Below are positions 32,691-40,075 of a DNA stretch of 64,000 nucleotides, piece after piece (position 1 is the stretch's first letter; every line of letters starts with the position of its first letter). The stretch comes from Alphaproteobacteria bacterium. GTDB taxonomy: Bacteria; Pseudomonadota; Alphaproteobacteria; CBCXTS01. The DNA is taken from contig CBCXTS010000026.1 in NCBI GenBank assembly GCA_965178085.1, positions 90,205 through 154,204 on the forward strand, written 5' to 3'. A model generated the notes under the pieces. The model ran no database searches, had not been told where the DNA came from, and saw only the letters and a list, made by a program, of their open reading frames with translations. Position numbers and translations under genes: made by a program.

Positions 32691-32808
32691 ATCTATTACT
32701 ATGATATAAACGCATATCATGGTTAGCTAATAATCATTTGCAGATATTTGCAAGTGATGTGTTTTGCAAGGATCAATTTTGTTGAGCCCTCACGTTGAGT
32801 TAAGACCT

Positions 32809-34278
32809 TTATTCATTGATATTACCTAATGCGTATCCACGTGCGTGCACAGTACGAATGGGGTTGTTTTGTCCTGCAATATTGAGATGAGCTCGTAATC
32901 GCTTGATGTGGACATCAATAGTACGCTCACCTACATGCACGTTTTGTCCCCATATGTTTTGGAGAATATCACTGCGTGATAAAACCTTGTTTGGGTGTGT
33001 CATGAAAAGATGGAGTATTTCAAAATCACGATGCGATAAATGCAATTCTTTGCGTCCACGCCCAGCACGCTGACTGGTAATGTCAATCCATAAATCATCA
33101 TAGACTATGCGTTCATTGATGGTGTTAGATGATAAGGATGGGTTAGGTTGTATGATGGTAGGGTTAGTGTTTTTTCGGATAAAAACACCTATTTTTGCAA
33201 GTAACTCTTTGCTAGAAAACGGTTGTACAATAAAATCATCGACATCGTTATTAAAAGCCGCAATTCGGATGTCCTCGTCATCATGATTGCTAATTGCTAT
33301 AATGGTTATATCTGTTTTTGAGATATTGCTATAAATTGTTGTCACGAGTTCTGTTGGGGCAATGTTTTCACTCGTCCAGTTAATCATAATAAGGTCGGGT
33401 TGATTGCGCATTAAAGCGACAATTGCTGTGGTTGCATTATTAGTAACAGTTACGCTATAGCCAGCTTGTGTTAAGGTGTTTTTTAACAGTTGAGTTTGCA
33501 TGGGGTCATCATCGCAGATTAAAAGATGTTTGTCTAATAGTGCAATGGGGGTAGTTGCTTTTTGAGTAGCTTTTGTGTTTGGCTGATCATTGCCTATATT
33601 TTTAGCAAAATCGCGCGGCGGATATACACCATCTTGAATAAAAAAGGTGTGCTCTGCAATGTTTTTAATATGATCACCTATGCGTTCTAAATTTTTAGAA
33701 ACAGTGATAAGCTGTACAATATACTCAGATTTAATACCCCCTTTACGCAATTGTGCTAAGAAATGATTGAGGATGTCATGGAAGGCGCTATCAACATCTA
33801 GATCATTGGCAATTAAAAGTTTGGCAATATCAGTATCGCCAGTTAAATATGCTTGACTAGCTTTGTTTAAAGCGCTTTCAGTCATATTGCCTAAATTGGC
33901 AATTTGTGAAGCTAACGCGCCGTCGATGTTACTTTCAGAGAGTGACAGAACAGTTTTAGCTATAGATTTAGCCTTATCTGCTATTCGCTCTAAATCAACA
34001 CCAACTTTTACAGCGGTTAAAAGAAATCGTAAATCATTGGCCATAGGTTGGCGCAAAGCAATGATGTTGATAATATCATTATCGATTTCTGTTTCAAGTC
34101 TATTGGCGTTTATATCTTGCTTCCGGGTGTATTCTGCAAGCTCTAGATCGTTGTTTTTTAGTGCATTTAAAGAATCTTTAAGTTGCTTTTCTGCTTGTTG
34201 AAATAATTGTCCAATTTTTTTACGTAGTTCGGCTAAATCTTTATCAAAAGCTTGAACGATGTGCTTGCTTTGTTGCAT
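32809..34278 (-). CDS. PhoU-PhoB fusion: PhoU domain + degenerate receiver domain + OmpR/PhoB winged-helix DNA-binding domain
   Basis: aa 1-~220 PhoU (RQPMANDLR, DLERIAD, LERIGDHIKNIAE); aa 251-~367 receiver with D53->N300 and K105->Q352; C-terminal SR..IL..IWG...ERTIDVHIKRLR...IRTV..RGY; single uninterrupted ORF with SD AGAGGA. Confidence 0.9.
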   Translation of the reverse strand: MQQSKHIVQAFDKDLAELRKKIGQLFQQAEKQLKDSLNALKNNDLELAEYTRKQDINANRLETEIDNDIINIIALRQPMANDLRFLLTAVKVGVDLERIADKAKSIAKTVLSLSESNIDGALASQIANLGNMTESALNKASQAYLTGDTDIAKLLIANDLDVDSAFHDILNHFLAQLRKGGIKSEYIVQLITVSKNLERIGDHIKNIAEHTFFIQDGVYPPRDFAKNIGNDQPNTKATQKATTPIALLDKHLLICDDDPMQTQLLKNTLTQAGYSVTVTNNATTAIVALMRNQPDLIMINWTSENIAPTELVTTIYSNISKTDITIIAISNHDDEDIRIAAFNNDVDDFIVQPFSSKELLAKIGVFIRKNTNPTIIQPNPSLSSNTINERIVYDDLWIDITSQRAGRGRKELHLSHRDFEILHLFMTHPNKVLSRSDILQNIWGQNVHVGERTIDVHIKRLRAHLNIAGQNNPIRTVHARGYALGNINE

Positions 34279-34335
34279 AATATATCCTCTTTAGCTTTCT
34301 TTTATCATATAATATGGATTAAGTTGAGAACTTTT

Positions 34336-34353
34336 ATGACAAGATAATGACGT
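34336..34353 (-). promoter_or_regulatory. Pho-box-like direct repeat upstream of the phoU-phoB fusion
   Basis: Minus strand ACGTCAT-TATC-TTGTCAT, 11-bp period, resembles CTGTCAT-N4-CTGTCAT. Confidence 0.6.
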
Positions 34354-34384
34354 ATAAGTTAAGCTTCCCCAAGGGTGGGCATGA

Positions 34385-35149
34385 TTAACCAAATCTGCCA
34401 GTAATATAGCCAGTGGTTCGTTCATCGCTTGGATTTGTTAACATCATATTGGTAGGGCCTATTTCAACCAAAGAGCCTAAATGGAAAAAAGCTGTTTGCT
34501 GTGATACACGCCCTGCTTGCTGCATTGAATGGGTAACAATGACAATCGTGTATTTTTGTTGTAATTCATTAATTAAATCTTCAATGCGTGCGGTTGCAAT
34601 AGGATCAAGAGCAGAGCAAGGCTCATCCATTAAAATGATATCAGGCGATACTGCAATTGTACGTGCAATACATAATCGCTGCTGTTGGCCGCCTGAAAGG
34701 CTAGTCCCTGGTTGGTTGAGGCAATCTTTAACCTCATTCCATAAACTGGCCCGTTGAAGACTTTTTTCAACGATTTCATCTAATTCATATTTTGTTGATG
34801 CCATAGAATGAATTCTAGGGCCGTAAGCTACATTGTCATAAATTGACTTTGGAAAAGGGTTAGGTTTTTGAAAGACCATTCCAATGCGTGTACGCAAATC
34901 AACAACATCTGTTTGCTGATCGAGCACATTTTGGCCATTAATTTCAATGAGTCCTTCTGTACGGCAACCAGCAATCGTATCATTCATACGGTTAATGCAT
35001 CGAAGGAAGGTTGATTTTCCACATCCACTTGGGCCAATTAGTGCAGTGACTTGGTTGCTAGCTATTTGCAAAGAAACATCATACAAGGCCTGCTTGTTGT
35101 CGTAAAATACATTGACCTTATGTGTGTTGATTTTAATAGAATGTTGCAT
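34385..35149 (-). CDS. pstB: Phosphate ABC transporter ATP-binding protein
   Basis: [42 protein letters not shown]. Confidence 0.97.
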
Positions 35150-35199: not shown

Positions 35200-36468
35200 C
35201 TACCATGTGCGCTCTGTTTTTTTACGTAATATTGCAGCTGCTAAATTCATCACAATTAAAAACACTAATAATACAATAATAGCACCAGCAGTTTTTTCTA
35301 CAAAACCTCGCTCTGGATTATCTGCCCATAAAAAAATTTGAACTGGTAATGCGCTAGAAGCATCGGTAGGTAACAATGAAGGCTCAAGAATAAAAGCTAC
35401 CATGCCGATCATAAGCAAAGGAGCTGTTTCGCCCAAAGCTTGCGCCATGCCAATGATGGTACCAGTTAATGTGCCTGGCAAGGCAAGCGGTATAACGTGA
35501 TGCATCACTGTTTGTGTATGACTTGCGCCTAATCCAAGGGCAGCCTCACGAATGGATGAAGGAACTGCTTTTATTGCTGCGCGTGCAGCAATAATAATGG
35601 TTGGCAAGGTCATTAATGTTAATACAAACGCACCTGTTATTGGCGCAGAGCGTGGCATATTGAAGATATTTAAAAACAACGATAAACCTAATAATCCAAA
35701 AACAATAGATGGTACTGCAGCTAAGTTGTTAATATTGATTTCGATGATATTGGACCAACGTCCTGGCTTAGCGTATTCTTCTAAATAAATAGCGCTAAAT
35801 ACTCCCAAAGGAAATGACAATAAAAATGTTATTGAGAGCATCCAAAAAGAGCCTACAAGGCCTCCCCATATGCCAGCTAACTCAGGTAAACGAGAATCAC
35901 CGTTGGTAAAAAAGCTCCAATTAAATTTAGTAATGAGCTTTTGTTGCGTGATTAAGTCATTAATCCATGTAATCTGAAGATCATTTAAGGGGCGTAGCTC
36001 TTCAGCAACGTTGCTTGACAAGATACCTTTCATCAAAAGATCTACATTGCTGGATGCAGGTAGTAAAACATTAACACGCGTGCCAATGAGCTCAGGGCTT
36101 TTAAGTACGATATTTTTTAATTCATACCCTGCACCAGAAGATATCAATCTTGTAGCAAGTTTTTTATCACGGCGTCCTGTAGCGTTTGGGATGCTATTAT
36201 AGATTGCTTTTTTTACAATGCCTTGCCAGTTAATTTGATGAGCTTGTTGGCGGGTTAAGGGCAAAGGTATTTGCTCAAGATTAACCTCAATGCGCATTTC
36301 AGTGCGCATAAAACTACTAGCACCTTCAGTAAAGATTGCAATGAGTAATATTGCCAAAAGACTTAATGAAAAGATAATAGCTGCAAGCCCACTTGCACGG
36401 AAAACTTTTTCAAACAAATGGCGTTTGCGAAGTTTTTTGAAGGTATTGGATGATTGATGATGGGCCAT
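35200..36468 (-). CDS. pstA: Phosphate ABC transporter permease PstA
   Basis: YLEEY, NLAAVPSIVFGLLG, REAA..LGA, GETAPL. Confidence 0.95.
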   Translation of the reverse strand: MAHHQSSNTFKKLRKRHLFEKVFRASGLAAIIFSLSLLAILLIAIFTEGASSFMRTEMRIEVNLEQIPLPLTRQQAHQINWQGIVKKAIYNSIPNATGRRDKKLATRLISSGAGYELKNIVLKSPELIGTRVNVLLPASSNVDLLMKGILSSNVAEELRPLNDLQITWINDLITQQKLITKFNWSFFTNGDSRLPELAGIWGGLVGSFWMLSITFLLSFPLGVFSAIYLEEYAKPGRWSNIIEININNLAAVPSIVFGLLGLSLFLNIFNMPRSAPITGAFVLTLMTLPTIIIAARAAIKAVPSSIREAALGLGASHTQTVMHHVIPLALPGTLTGTIIGMAQALGETAPLLMIGMVAFILEPSLLPTDASSALPVQIFLWADNPERGFVEKTAGAIIVLLVFLIVMNLAAAILRKKTERTW

Positions 36469-36490: not shown

Positions 36491-37867
36491 CTATTCATAT
36501 ATTTCGCGGTATTTGCGCACGATGCGCAATGCAAATATATTTAAGCCTAATGTGATGATAAAAAGTGTCATACCAAGGGCAAAAGCCGATAGTGTTTTAA
36601 CGCTATCAAACTCATGATCTCCTACAAGTAATGTCACAATTTGTACTGTTACAGTGGTGACTGCTTCAAACGGGTTAGCAGTAAGATTGGCAGCTAACCC
36701 GGCTGCCATGACAACAATCATGGTTTCACCTATGGCACGGCTTAGCGCTAACATTAATGCTCCTACAATCCCTGGTAAGGCCGCTGGAATAAGCACTTTC
36801 AAAATTGTTTCGCTATGGGTGGCACCAAGTGCTAAAGAGCCGTCACGCAATGCTAAAGGAACAGCCGATATAACGTCTTCTGAAAGCGATGAAATAAATG
36901 GTATCAACATTACTCCCATCACTAGGCCAGCAGCTAAAGCGCTTTCGGTTGATGCAGGGATATCAAATGCAACAGCAAAATCTCTTACCATTGGTCCAAA
37001 TTGCAGTGCTGCAATAAAGCCATATACAACTGTTGGTATGCCTGCCAGTATCTCTAAGGTAGGTTTGACCCAATTGCGGATTTGTGGGGTGGCAAATTGT
37101 GATAAATAAATTGCCGACATAAGCCCAACTGGTACCGCCATGAATAATGCAATGGTAGCAACCATAGCAGTGCCAGCAAAAACCGGAACAGCACCAAATG
37201 CGCCTGAAGAACCGACTTGGTCTTGGCGGATGGCAATTTGTGGAGACCATTGCAAGCCAAATAGAAAATCAAAGGCAGAATATAAACTAAAGAATCGAAA
37301 ACATTCTCCAATGAGCGTTAAAATGATGGCAATGGTTGTAAGGACTGCCGCTGATGCAGCAATGATTAAAATGATCAACCAAACACGCTCTAAAGCAATA
37401 CGAGTTTGAGATTGTAAATTGATTTGCTTAAGCTTTATCAAGCCTAGTATTGTTGCTATTGCAATGATAAATAAGGATGTAGCAAAGGTAAAATGGTAAT
37501 CGAGGTAGTGGTAATGCTTCGCAGCTTTTATTAAAGCAGGATTATCAAGCAAGGAGTAGTTTTGTGTAGCAATGGCTTGTTCTATTGTTGATATGAGAAA
37601 TGAAGTAGCTTGCACGGCAGGCTCTGAATCTGTCTCAAGGGCAAAACTTTCTAAGACAATCCATTCTATCAAAGGATAATGGAATAGGCTTAATAAGCTA
37701 AAAATTATAAAGCTAGGCAACGCACACCAAATAGCAACAAGCCAACCATAATGTGATGAGGGTGTACGATTTCGTGTGTTTTTTAAAGAACGTTGTTGTG
37801 TTATTTTTCGATAGGATAAATAAAAAAACAAACAAGATAGAAGAATGATGACGCCAGTGGTTGCCAT
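36491..37867 (-). CDS. pstC: Phosphate ABC transporter permease PstC
   Basis: KP.LEILAGIPTVVYG, LALSRAIGETMIV. Confidence 0.95.
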   Translation of the reverse strand: MATTGVIILLSCLFFYLSYRKITQQRSLKNTRNRTPSSHYGWLVAIWCALPSFIIFSLLSLFHYPLIEWIVLESFALETDSEPAVQATSFLISTIEQAIATQNYSLLDNPALIKAAKHYHYLDYHFTFATSLFIIAIATILGLIKLKQINLQSQTRIALERVWLIILIIAASAAVLTTIAIILTLIGECFRFFSLYSAFDFLFGLQWSPQIAIRQDQVGSSGAFGAVPVFAGTAMVATIALFMAVPVGLMSAIYLSQFATPQIRNWVKPTLEILAGIPTVVYGFIAALQFGPMVRDFAVAFDIPASTESALAAGLVMGVMLIPFISSLSEDVISAVPLALRDGSLALGATHSETILKVLIPAALPGIVGALMLALSRAIGETMIVVMAAGLAANLTANPFEAVTTVTVQIVTLLVGDHEFDSVKTLSAFALGMTLFIITLGLNIFALRIVRKYREIYE

Positions 37868-37924: not shown

Positions 37925-38950
37925 TTAAAGAGCTTCAACATGATTACGCAATTTTAGTAAAGCTGCTTCTTCAAGTGGGATAAGACCAGCGTCTAATAAA
38001 TAACCATCTTCATCAATTGCTCGGTTGGAAATAAATTCAAGTACAAATTCTTTCAAACCACGTATTTCATGAATATGGGCTGTTTTAACATAGAAAAACA
38101 AAGGCCGAGCAATAGGATAGCTTTTATCTAGAATGTTTTCAAAAGTGGGCTTAGCACCTTCAATAATTGATCCTTGAATGATGTCAAAATTTTGTTCAAG
38201 AAAAGAAAAACCAAAAATTCCTAATAAATTTGTATCAGCTTTTAATTTTTGTACGATAAGGTTATCATTTTCTCCTGCTTCAATAAAAGAGCCGTCTTCG
38301 CGTAAAGTATTGGCATGTTCTTTAAAGATTTTTGGGTCTGACTTTTCAAGCAATGCCAAGCTCTTAATACTGTGAGCCCCTGCTTCCATTACTAATTCTA
38401 AAAATGCATCGCGTGTTCCTGATGTTGGTGGCGGGCCTAGAACTTTAATTGGAATGTTTGGAAGGTCAGGATTAATTTGGCGCCATTTTTTATATGGATT
38501 AAGGATAAAATTGCCATGTTCATCAGGCAATTTTTTTGCAAGTGCCATATAAATTTCTTTAAGTTGAAGCTTGATTGGATCCTTGGCACGCGATGAGCCG
38601 ATAACGATGCCATCAAAACCTATCTGTATTTCTTCGAAAGTGACATTGTTTTTTTTGCATTTTTCAATTTCACCGCTTTTAATGGCACGAGAAGCGTTAT
38701 TAATATCGGCATATTGTGTGCCTACGCCAGCACAAAAAAGTTTAAAACCTCCTCCTGTGCCAGTAGTTTCAATAACAGGGCTTTTATAATCGCTTGATTT
38801 TGCAAAATTTTCAGCCACAATTGCAGAAAAAGGATACACCGTAGAAGAACCAACGATACGGATTTGATCACGCGCTTGGGCAGTATGATACATACCAAGG
38901 TATAACGTAATCGCTAGTGTAATAGAAACGAAGCTAAAGAAGTTTTTCAT
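37925..38950 (-). CDS. pstS: Phosphate ABC transporter substrate-binding protein
   Basis: Signal peptide; GSSTVYPF, GTGGG, NASR, GPPPTSGTRD, YPIARPLF. Confidence 0.94.
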   Translation of the reverse strand: MKNFFSFVSITLAITLYLGMYHTAQARDQIRIVGSSTVYPFSAIVAENFAKSSDYKSPVIETTGTGGGFKLFCAGVGTQYADINNASRAIKSGEIEKCKKNNVTFEEIQIGFDGIVIGSSRAKDPIKLQLKEIYMALAKKLPDEHGNFILNPYKKWRQINPDLPNIPIKVLGPPPTSGTRDAFLELVMEAGAHSIKSLALLEKSDPKIFKEHANTLREDGSFIEAGENDNLIVQKLKADTNLLGIFGFSFLEQNFDIIQGSIIEGAKPTFENILDKSYPIARPLFFYVKTAHIHEIRGLKEFVLEFISNRAIDEDGYLLDAGLIPLEEAALLKLRNHVEAL

Positions 38951-38980
38951 TGATTAGGTACTTTCAAATAAAGTTTACTT

Positions 38981-39021
38981 AAAATGTTTAAACATAGATC
39001 GAAAATGTTTAAACATAGATC
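38981..39021. repeat. 20-bp direct repeat (21-bp period), each copy containing the perfect palindrome ATGTTTAAACAT
   Basis: AAAATGTTTAAACATAGATC at 38981-39000 and 39002-39021. Confidence 0.92.
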
Positions 39022-39023
39022 AG

Positions 39024-39052
39024 TTGTAATAAAAGTGACATAAAAATGAAAT
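39024..39052 (-). promoter_or_regulatory. Pho-box-like repeats upstream of pstS
   Basis: Minus strand ATTTCAT-TTTT-ATGTCAC-TTTT-ATTACAA with 11-bp period. Confidence 0.5.
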
Positions 39053-39593
39053 GTCTAGATTGCCAGAACAAGTCCATATCATCTGCTTCCAAAATGATAA
39101 TTAGATTGTAGTACTTGATTTGACAATGATTATTCTGTGAAAATAATGTTACAGAAATGTTAATAGACATTATATTTGTTTTGTTTGTGGTCAGTGTCAA
39201 TGTATAGCGCTATTATTAACGCGCTACTATTATGGTGCATTTATAATGATGATGTCGTGATGTCGAGGTTATGATAAGGATTGGTATATGAACCGTTTGA
39301 GCGCGAAGTAAGTGGCCTCAGTGTGGTAGATATAACGCTCAATGTTTGAAAAGTTAATATATCATATTTAGTTGCAATTTTATTATGAAGGCCAAATAAT
39401 GAATGTAGACATATTAAAGCTGAGACAGCATATTTAGATGCAAGACATGAAATTTGTCTATGATAGATGGTCTCATGACAATATAATAAATACTCGATTA
39501 ATAATAAATACTGCATTATCATCAATGTCATCTTATGATAGATATTAGATAATTGGATATCTCTATTAGATATTTTAAAATGAGGTTTTGTAA

Positions 39594-39938
39594 ATGAGAA
39601 AATTAACAACCCATGTGCTAGATACGATGCATGGTAAGCCTGCAGCTAATTTACGCATATGCTTGTTGAATGAAGTTGATGACTTGCTTAAAGATGTATT
39701 GACGAACATAGATGGTAGGCTAGACCAGCCGCTTTTACAAGGAAATGCAATGATAGCAGGAACTTATAGGATTGTGTTTCATGTAGGTGATTATTATAAA
39801 GGGATGCTCATCAAATCGACAAAGCCTCTTTTCCTTAATAAAATTCCAGTAGAATTTGGCATTGATATGGATCATGACCATTATCATGTACCGTTACTTG
39901 TTTCTCCTTATGGTTATTCAACATATAGGGGATCGTAA
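39594..39938 (+). CDS. uraH: 5-hydroxyisourate hydrolase (transthyretin-like)
   Basis: LTTHVLD, DGR, HYHVPLL.SPYGYSTYRGS. Confidence 0.96.
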   Translation: MRKLTTHVLDTMHGKPAANLRICLLNEVDDLLKDVLTNIDGRLDQPLLQGNAMIAGTYRIVFHVGDYYKGMLIKSTKPLFLNKIPVEFGIDMDHDHYHVPLLVSPYGYSTYRGS

Positions 39939-40075
39939 TGGGTAGAAAGAACAAGATTTTTTAAAATATAAAGGTTTTAACAAAAAAGTAGTAATTCATT
40001 ATATTGCGTTGATAGACATCAACAGTAGTATGGATGGCAGGCAAAATAAATACCATAAAAATGAAGTAGTAAACG

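Follow-up and report, generated by a model that had tools for sequence, protein, structure and literature searches.

What can a phosphate regulator still do when PhoU and PhoB are joined in a single polypeptide, and the receiver domain between them no longer has the residue at which PhoB is phosphorylated? The question is raised by a gene of 489 codons plus stop on the minus strand (32809–34278) of a 64,000-nucleotide stretch of DNA from an alphaproteobacterium (GenBank assembly GCA_965178085.1, contig CBCXTS010000026.1, forward-strand positions 90,205 to 154,204), here called the window, to whose numbering all positions refer. The gene stands last in the row pstS-pstC-pstA-pstB and is a natural in-frame fusion of adjacent phoU and phoB at the end of the pstSCAB operon; the receiver that joins its PhoU part to its winged helix is a pseudo-receiver. 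The alignment of the fusion with its relatives, the constraint on its separate domains, the failure to find PhoR and the shuffling of its codons together support the view, first put forward in a sequence-only reading of this DNA, that the pseudo-receiver has been kept by selection for a function independent of phosphorylation, and is neither an error nor part of a decaying gene.

The receiver was compared residue by residue with the fetched sequence of E. coli K-12 PhoB, to which it aligns without gaps at an offset of 247. The acidic pocket is kept, E9, D10 and E11 of PhoB corresponding to D256, D257 and D258, and the switch residues are kept as S330 (T83) and F349 (Y102). The phospho-acceptor D53 is replaced by Asn300 and the invariant lysine K105 by Gln352, the codons AAC (33381–33379) and CAA (33225–33223) being read directly from the DNA. 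The usual MLP loop has become TSE, so that W54-M55-L56-P57 of PhoB reads W-T-S-E, and in the wing of the DNA-binding domain, which reads TVHARGY, H takes the place of R219. In each of these particulars, the offset included, the sequence-only reading had been accurate. The changes at N300 and Q352 amount to more than chance variation, because 44 of the 48 nearest unfused PhoB-like proteins keep D at position 53 (three have E and one S) and 47 of the 48 keep K at position 105 (the last has V). Four of these unfused proteins (P0051, P0107, P0108 and P0172), all outside the fusion clade, are themselves atypical: their second acidic residue is P or H, their phospho-acceptor is E or S, and one of them has V in place of the lysine.

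In the classification set out in PMC12632262, a pseudo-receiver is a receiver that lacks one or more of the five catalytic residues (DD, D, T and K), and an aspartate-less subset is without D. The domain studied here is computationally recognised as a receiver, lacks the equivalents of D53 and K105, and retains DD and S/T. Its Response_reg score is 59.1 bits (the Pfam cut-off is 30.2 bits), whereas the genome's three canonical receivers score 102–114 bits. If PhoB is defined as a regulator phosphorylated at Asp53 by its cognate PhoR, then the fused protein, with Asn at position 53 and PhoR not found, would appear from its sequence to fall outside that definition.

In other respects the protein is built as its gene order would suggest. 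The PhoU domain (33619–34278, residues 1–220; this and the following segments are all on the minus strand) is fully canonical: it has 28 of 28 conserved columns, Pfam recognises in it two PF01895 repeats (132.6 bits), and residues 9–217 score 181.3 bits against the NCBIfam model for PhoU, TIGR02135, above the cut-off of 130.25, so that the score and the two repeats, their acidic motifs conserved, are those of a PhoU equivalog. The motif G-x-Y-P-P-R at residues 217–222 precedes the junction and first linker (33532–33618, residues 221–249), which leads into the pseudo-receiver (33178–33531, residues 250–367; Response_reg match at residues 253–363) with Asn300 at 33379–33381, Gln352 at 33223–33225 and a degenerate beta3-alpha3 loop. 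A second linker, which alignment shows to be longer than that of E. coli PhoB (33097–33177, residues 368–394), connects this to a PhoB-type winged-helix DNA-binding domain (32812–33096, residues 395–489), for which Trans_reg_C scores 80.2 bits over residues 410–484. Receiver followed by Trans_reg_C winged helix is the architecture of the OmpR/PhoB family. No Pfam match to an N-terminal AbrB/SpoVT domain was found in the fusion protein. Against the NCBIfam model for PhoB, TIGR02154, residues 250–484 score 177.7 bits, below the equivalog cut-off of 296.2; no regulator of this genome passes this cut-off, and in a control only 2 of 14 reference genomes passed it. TIGR02154 is also the best-scoring response-regulator family, at the top of 73 families at E <= 0.01, with the next at 137 bits. 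Both by this ranking and by its place, behind phoU and last in the pst operon, the regulator half is the orthologue of PhoB.

An AlphaFold2 model of residues 247–489, made from a 46-row alignment, has a mean predicted local distance difference test (pLDDT) score of 89.8. The predicted structure comprises a full (beta-alpha)5 receiver, with pLDDT mostly above 90, and a winged helix, and it places N300, S330 and Q352 at the C-terminal ends of beta3, beta4 and beta5, which is where the active site of a receiver lies; in the second linker pLDDT falls below 50 at residues 376–386. The top Foldseek matches of the model are the OmpR/PhoB regulators PrrA, MtrA, KdpE and PhoP. The winged helix matches the E. 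coli PhoB effector domain (1gxp) at E = 3e-22, and on the 1gxp chains, which are bound to Pho-box DNA, the predicted domain superimposes with template-modelling scores of 0.87–0.89, a root-mean-square deviation of 1.4–2.0 Å and 41–42% identity. The recognition helix is nearly identical to that of E. coli PhoB. The full-length model, derived from an alignment of four fusion sequences only, is too poor to speak to domain packing (mean pLDDT 61.8, predicted template-modelling score 0.45, pLDDT below 50 across residues 215–251), and an alignment that put the fusions together with PhoU and PhoB sequences of one domain each was discarded as visibly misaligned. Prediction of a receiver dimer from two copies of residues 247–372, again with 46 rows, gave scores of 0.04 and 0.01 against a mark of 0.42, a result that speaks neither for nor against a dimer.

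When 1.84 billion cluster representatives were searched exhaustively with HMMER, 15 proteins matched at E <= 1e-30. Among all these representatives only three match over both halves: the fusion protein under study (P0001), P0002 (481 residues, 44% identity) and the partial P0003 (339 residues). A word-indexed search gave the same answer, and the next match, at 136 bits, covers a single domain. P0180, of 489 residues, is a full-length member of the 90% cluster of P0003, which brings the total to three fusion lineages, 44–47% identical overall and with the frame intact in each. The accession numbers of the NCBI records of P0002 and P0003 lie about 2200 apart. A further candidate, P0004 (470 residues, PhoU plus a canonical receiver), is read as a frameshifted record and was excluded from all counts; its PhoU tail and its C-terminus are arginine/proline-rich, unlike either family, and it has no Trans_reg_C match.

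The catalytic positions of the three lineages read, in the order P0001, P0002 and P0180, D, T and A at E9; D, D and E at D10; N, D and G at D53; S, S and D at T83; and Q, E and I at K105. At two further receiver positions they read E, H and H (P57) and F, F and Y (Y102). The sequence-only reading had looked to homologous fusions to show whether both of its substitutions are shared. Loss of the lysine is common to all three lineages, with a different residue in each, so that neither homologue retains it. The loss of Asp53 is confined to two of the three, one of the two homologues, P0002, having kept the residue, with T at its first acidic position. P0180 has lost all five catalytic residues. 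In the beta3-alpha3 turn, P0001 and P0002 have lost both the Pro at D+4 and the Gly at D+8; P0180 is without the Pro and keeps the Gly. On sequence, and by the definition in PMC12632262, a 2025 review, all three fusions are pseudo-receivers, and P0001 and P0180 belong to the aspartate-less subset. In the wing, R219H occurs in P0001 alone, the other two lineages having retained Arg.

The fusions form an exclusive clade both in a tree of PhoU (89 tips, support 1.0) and in a tree of the regulators (52 tips, support 0.935), and all three carry the junction motif G-x-Y-P-P-R, which is present in 0 of 86 unfused PhoU proteins. Exclusive clades in both trees and a shared junction therefore point to one ancient fusion, which arose once and has been kept in three diverged lineages. 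Loss of a stop codon is its obvious origin, because in 26 of 400 further sampled genomes of the class phoU and phoB share one frame with only one or two stops between them; an uninterrupted fusion was found in none of the 400. Nor was one found in any of 40 relative genomes, in all of which phoU and phoB are separate neighbours in the same order (the open reading frames, ORFs, were inspected in G014 and G030). The nearest of these 40 belongs to the same class, and none is closer; the tallies over the 40 take in one unpublished genome (G040), on which no claim rests. Relatives were sought in species-representative genomes, where just one unrelated regulator of 27% identity came to light, and in Joint Genome Institute (JGI) metagenomes with the fusion alignment, where six loci were found, all of them ordinary regulators at 19–27% identity, and no fusion.

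If the receiver cannot accept a phosphoryl group, is there a kinase to offer one? PhoR is undetectable in this genome (2.47 Mb in 27 contigs, 98.75% complete) with three different queries. The best score for the PhoR profile TIGR02966 is 91.3 bits and belongs to an NtrY-like kinase. The cut-off of this profile, 334.2, is too strict for the class, since just 1 of 41 genomes passes it; 37 of the 40 relatives match the profile at E <= 1e-30, and their top full-length PhoR-like matches score about 200–339 bits, some of them near the pst cluster. In tblastn searches the PhoR-size ORFs of four relatives matched only the EnvZ-like, the NtrY-like and two other kinase cores (best E 1.5e-13, 21–35% identity); the pstS ORFs from two of the same relative loci found the pstS of this genome at 54% identity. 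The 1.1 kb upstream of pstS, searched for what might be left of PhoR, gave chance matches only (E >= 0.35). Read from coordinates, 16 of the 40 relatives have phoR no more than about 10 kb away from phoU-phoB. In many relatives it stands on the pstS-upstream side of the pst genes, where the present genome has a 1.1-kb gap.

The whole genome has three HisKA matches (an EnvZ-like kinase beside an OmpR-like regulator, an NtrY-like kinase and a HAMP kinase), four receiver domains and three Trans_reg_C matches. Such a signalling repertoire is very small for 2.47 Mb, and the lineage has an isolated look; it is possibly host-associated or streamlined. The fused gene is the only full PhoU in the genome. 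A second pair of PhoU repeats occurs on another contig (C5:240519–241010), within a frame of 562 residues that may be a transporter fusion, by analogy with Na/Pi-cotransporter-PhoU proteins.

The phosphate genes, then, are probably controlled by the fusion protein without phosphorylation. We lean towards the reading that the protein is a phosphate regulator without phosphotransfer, in which the covalent link to PhoU takes the place of the PhoR step. In such a scheme the PhoU module would sense, by way of PstB, what state the Pst transporter is in, or would sense cytoplasmic phosphate instead; the attached PhoB module would be held inactive at the transporter, on PstB, when phosphate is plentiful, and released to bind DNA otherwise. 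Alternatively, a conformational change in PhoU might be transmitted through the dead receiver. The pseudo-receiver would in either case serve as a structural or oligomerising connector and not as a switch. Binding partners of PhoU in E. coli include PstB and the PAS domain of PhoR, and some PhoU mutants no longer bind PhoR yet still bind PstB (PMC4423584); by analogy with this work the fused PhoU part would also bind PstB. For Caulobacter and Sinorhizobium the view is that PhoU responds to phosphate in the cytoplasm and restrains PstSCAB, and the Caulobacter operon pstC-pstA-pstB-phoU-phoB is PhoB-dependent (PMC11208175). The most specific form of the proposal, a kinase-free phosphate pathway in a single polypeptide, with PhoU directly gating the DNA-binding module of PhoB and the dead receiver as a mechanical connector, is attractive but should be held as tentative, being somewhat less than probable.

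A less likely but serious alternative is that the stop codon of phoU was lost by neutral read-through and that the two halves of the protein work independently, PhoU doing no more than tune Pst transport while the orphaned PhoB half is a constitutive DNA-binding protein, permanently active or permanently inactive, at a level set by its dose. The join requires only a single easy mutation, as the 26 genomes of the class with both genes in one frame illustrate, and the few signalling proteins of the genome, with their four receivers and three HisKA matches, accord with an orphaned regulator. PhoU is described as acting on the transporter in Caulobacter and Sinorhizobium (PMC11208175), and the atypical OmpR/PhoB regulators HP1043 and ChxR are reported to be active without signal input. 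A neutral join, however, would be expected to split again or to vary at the junction, whereas this one has been kept in three lineages only 44–47% identical, with a GxYPPR junction that is not seen in unfused PhoU proteins.

Several observations weigh against control of the phosphate genes by the fusion protein in the manner proposed. Over the usual dimer face of the receiver, its alpha4-beta5-alpha5 half, P0001 and P0002 are 57.8% identical, which is the canonical level (57.3%), but identity to P0180 is just 16–18%, and a conserved dimerising role is therefore unsupported across the clade. The positions equivalent to A147 and R148 of E. coli PhoU, which PhoR binding requires, vary in unfused PhoU proteins too, and are uninformative. 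Pho boxes are direct repeats spaced 11 bp, which stand in front of pst genes and are bound by PhoB; a search with the E. coli consensus found no match with three or fewer mismatches upstream of pstS, and genome-wide only ten matches have two or fewer mismatches, all of them exactly two. Matches at three mismatches number 7 in the window, where 6.3 are expected, and this puts at chance level a weak Pho-box-like direct repeat of doubtful membership at 34336–34353 (minus strand), in the spacer between pstB and phoU, which has three mismatches to the same consensus. The absence of PhoR rests on one draft assembly of 27 contigs. Finally, PhoU in alphaproteobacteria may act on transport and not on signalling (PMC11208175), which suits independent functions for the two halves.

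How far each domain is constrained bears on another possibility, that the phoB half is a decaying relic left after the loss of PhoR and that only PhoU is functional. Columns were counted as conserved where at least 85% of unfused proteins agree, with 85 references for PhoU and 44 canonical regulators for the other domains. P0001, P0002 and P0180 retain respectively 28, 26 and 27 of the 28 conserved PhoU columns; 17, 19 and 18 of the 20 in the winged helix; and 15, 17 and 10 of the 26 in the receiver, which has thus lost 9–16. Pairwise identity among the fusions is 51–56% in PhoU, 33–54% in the winged helix and 20–35% in the receiver, while in canonical regulators the receiver and the winged helix are about equal (mean identity 43.8% and 43.1%). 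The Pfam scores of the three fused receivers are 59.1, 38.6 and 33.5 bits; those of Trans_reg_C stay at 71–80 bits. In the PhoU tree the root-to-tip distances of the fusions (3.4–3.6) are close to the canonical median of 3.3, and in the regulator tree they are 2.7–3.9 against a canonical 1.96, that is, 1.4–2 times longer. Judged from these alignments and trees, the PhoU and DNA-binding domains are strongly constrained, and the receiver, most of all in its active-site half, is relaxed.

The eroded receiver, with its Pfam scores of 33–59 bits, and the faster evolution of the regulator half are what a decaying gene would be expected to leave. The winged helix does not share in this erosion, and between P0001 and P0180 it is 53.6% identical, where canonical regulators average 43.1%. 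All three lineages have an intact frame, and when the 243 regulator codons were shuffled 20000 times no shuffle was free of in-frame stops; the high pLDDT of the modelled regulator half also tells against decay. From the conservation of the winged helix together with the open frame, decay of the phoB half as a whole is therefore rejected, and a relic of this kind is very improbable, being largely refuted already. The contrast between 17–19 of 20 columns in the winged helix and 10–17 of 26 in the receiver likewise rejects neutral evolution of both domains, which the sequence-only reading had named as an outcome that would refute it.

Equally improbable is a persistence of control by phosphorylation, whether at another residue (a shifted Asp, or a Ser or Thr) or by a non-cognate kinase such as the EnvZ-like or the NtrY-like one. 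P0001 keeps D257, D258 and S330, P0002 keeps the Asp itself, and pseudo-receivers regulated by other modifications are described in PMC12632262. But Asn300 cannot serve as a phosphoryl acceptor, none of the three lineages has the Lys to which the phosphoryl oxygen binds, P0180 is without all five catalytic positions, and the Pro of the beta3-alpha3 turn has been lost throughout. As regards the accuracy of the sequence, a Logan contig from the only public run containing the stretch is identical to it over 32700–34400 (1701 bases, with 0 other letters and 0 gaps), although this run is possibly the source sample, so that the identity excludes an assembler artefact only. That a stop was lost or bases were miscalled in sequencing or assembly can be dismissed as exceedingly unlikely, for the low word depth of 6.67 in that one run is outweighed by the agreement of a second assembler over the same 1701 bases, by the presence of the fusion in two other lineages from other records, and by the nature of the changes, which are many coordinated amino-acid substitutions and not single miscalls.

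The genes in front of the fusion gene are those of a phosphate transporter, all on the minus strand. The first gene of the operon is pstS, for the periplasmic phosphate-binding protein (37925–38950; Pfam PBP_like_2, 130.8 bits; 54% identity by tblastn to pstS of two relatives). The two permease genes are named by inference: putative pstC (36491–37867), an ORF of 458 residues lying between pstS and pstB and resembling ABC permeases in sequence, and putative pstA (35200–36468), an ORF of 422 residues whose C-terminal half is like the pstA ORF of the relative G030. The ATPase gene pstB (34385–35149, 254 residues), directly upstream of the fusion gene, is close to the pstB ORFs of G014 and G030. 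Beyond the 3' end of the fusion gene lie two convergent plus-strand genes, by eye a purF-like ORF of 483 residues and a short-chain-dehydrogenase-like ORF of 235. On the other side pstS is separated from a divergent plus-strand cluster, which resembles xanthine dehydrogenase, by 1.1 kb of AT-rich DNA (38951–40075), an unusually long interval in which there is no convincing gene, just a TTG-initiated ORF of 122 residues with no Pfam match. No Rfam match falls within it, and an Rfam scan of the whole window gave one tRNA only. A look through the public runs for transcripts of the stretch turned up no RNA data set.

Searches for Pho boxes and for palindromes found no convincing binding site for the fusion protein. 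The candidate operator that deserves mention lies in the same interval, at 38981–39021 (no strand assigned), 31–71 nt upstream of the pstS start, and consists of a 20-nt sequence repeated exactly in tandem (two copies, period 21 bp), with the perfect 12-bp palindrome ATGTTTAAACAT in both copies. This palindrome occurs four times in the genome, where 0.7 copies are expected, and the other two copies are within ORFs; as a regulon motif it was rejected, the sole copies outside ORFs being the two upstream of pstS. The tandem repeat may be an operator at which the fusion protein, or some other regulator, acts.

Set beside the canonical PstSCAB-PhoU-PhoR-PhoB system of E. coli, the locus has the same gene order (pstS-C-A-B-phoU-phoB), a canonical PhoU and a PhoB-like winged helix, and differs from it in having phoU and phoB in one frame, a receiver that is not phosphorylatable at the usual site, no PhoR that could be found and a TIGR02154 score below the cut-off. 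The Caulobacter operon, with its phoR upstream, likewise keeps phoU and phoB as separate genes, which are here fused. In the state of its receiver the protein resembles HP1043/HsrA, ChxR, GlnR and RitR, which also combine a receiver-like fold without catalytic residues with an intact winged helix and no partner kinase. To our knowledge none of these has an N-terminal PhoU domain, and unlike the fusion protein they are not PhoB orthologues and their genes do not lie in a pst operon. At position 53 RitR likewise has Asn for Asp, and of receiver-winged-helix architectures about 2% (609 sequences) lack the aspartate, according to PMC4395418; literature abstracts describe HP1043, ChxR and GlnR as functioning without phosphorylation. 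The word 'PhoU' occurs 0 times in the pseudo-receiver reviews PMC12632262 and PMC4395418. A full-text literature search, whose scope excluded most subscription journals and supplements, found neither a natural PhoU-PhoB fusion nor a PhoB orthologue with a dead receiver; where 'PhoU-PhoB' appears in the portions of the literature examined (including PMC11208175), it is the name of a pathway or an operon.

Where PhoU and a DNA-binding domain share one polypeptide, the nearest precedent is archaeal, the AbrB/SpoVT-PhoU architecture of Haloferax volcanii PhoU2 (HVO_2374) and Thermococcus TK2245. HVO_2374 adjoins a pst operon and is a predicted regulator of phosphate uptake (PMC6267482; table entry in PMC7325993). 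One of the search matches, P0032, has this architecture. Unlike the present fusion, the archaeal proteins have a DNA-binding domain of the AbrB fold, placed first, and no receiver remnant; they are of unrelated origin, and in both cases function is predicted only. In E. coli MalK, the ATPase of an ABC (ATP-binding cassette) importer, holds the transcription factor MalT inactive according to the state of transport. The logic is the one proposed here, and the likeness would be functional only, MalK and MalT being separate proteins with no adaptor of the PhoU type. Pseudo-receivers of the OmpR/PhoB family are thus known; what appears to be new is that the receiver of the PhoB orthologue itself is dead and the protein fused to PhoU, in a genome without detected PhoR.

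How the phosphate signal gets from the Pst transporter to the Pho regulon by way of PhoU is debated, and the role of PhoU differs between enteric bacteria and alphaproteobacteria (PMC4423584, PMC11208175). The three lineages represent stages of receiver decay after the loss of phosphotransfer, the Lys having gone in three of three, the Asp in two of three and all five catalytic residues in one of three, with the flanking domains conserved, and this series bears on the question, posed as an open one in PMC12632262, of why pseudo-receivers are kept. If the output of the fusion protein still follows phosphate, then PhoU must be capable of signalling in the absence of PhoR, and five genes could be enough to rebuild the whole pathway. 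Should that prove true, the locus would be a natural minimal system in which PhoU alone carries the phosphate signal to a transcription factor.

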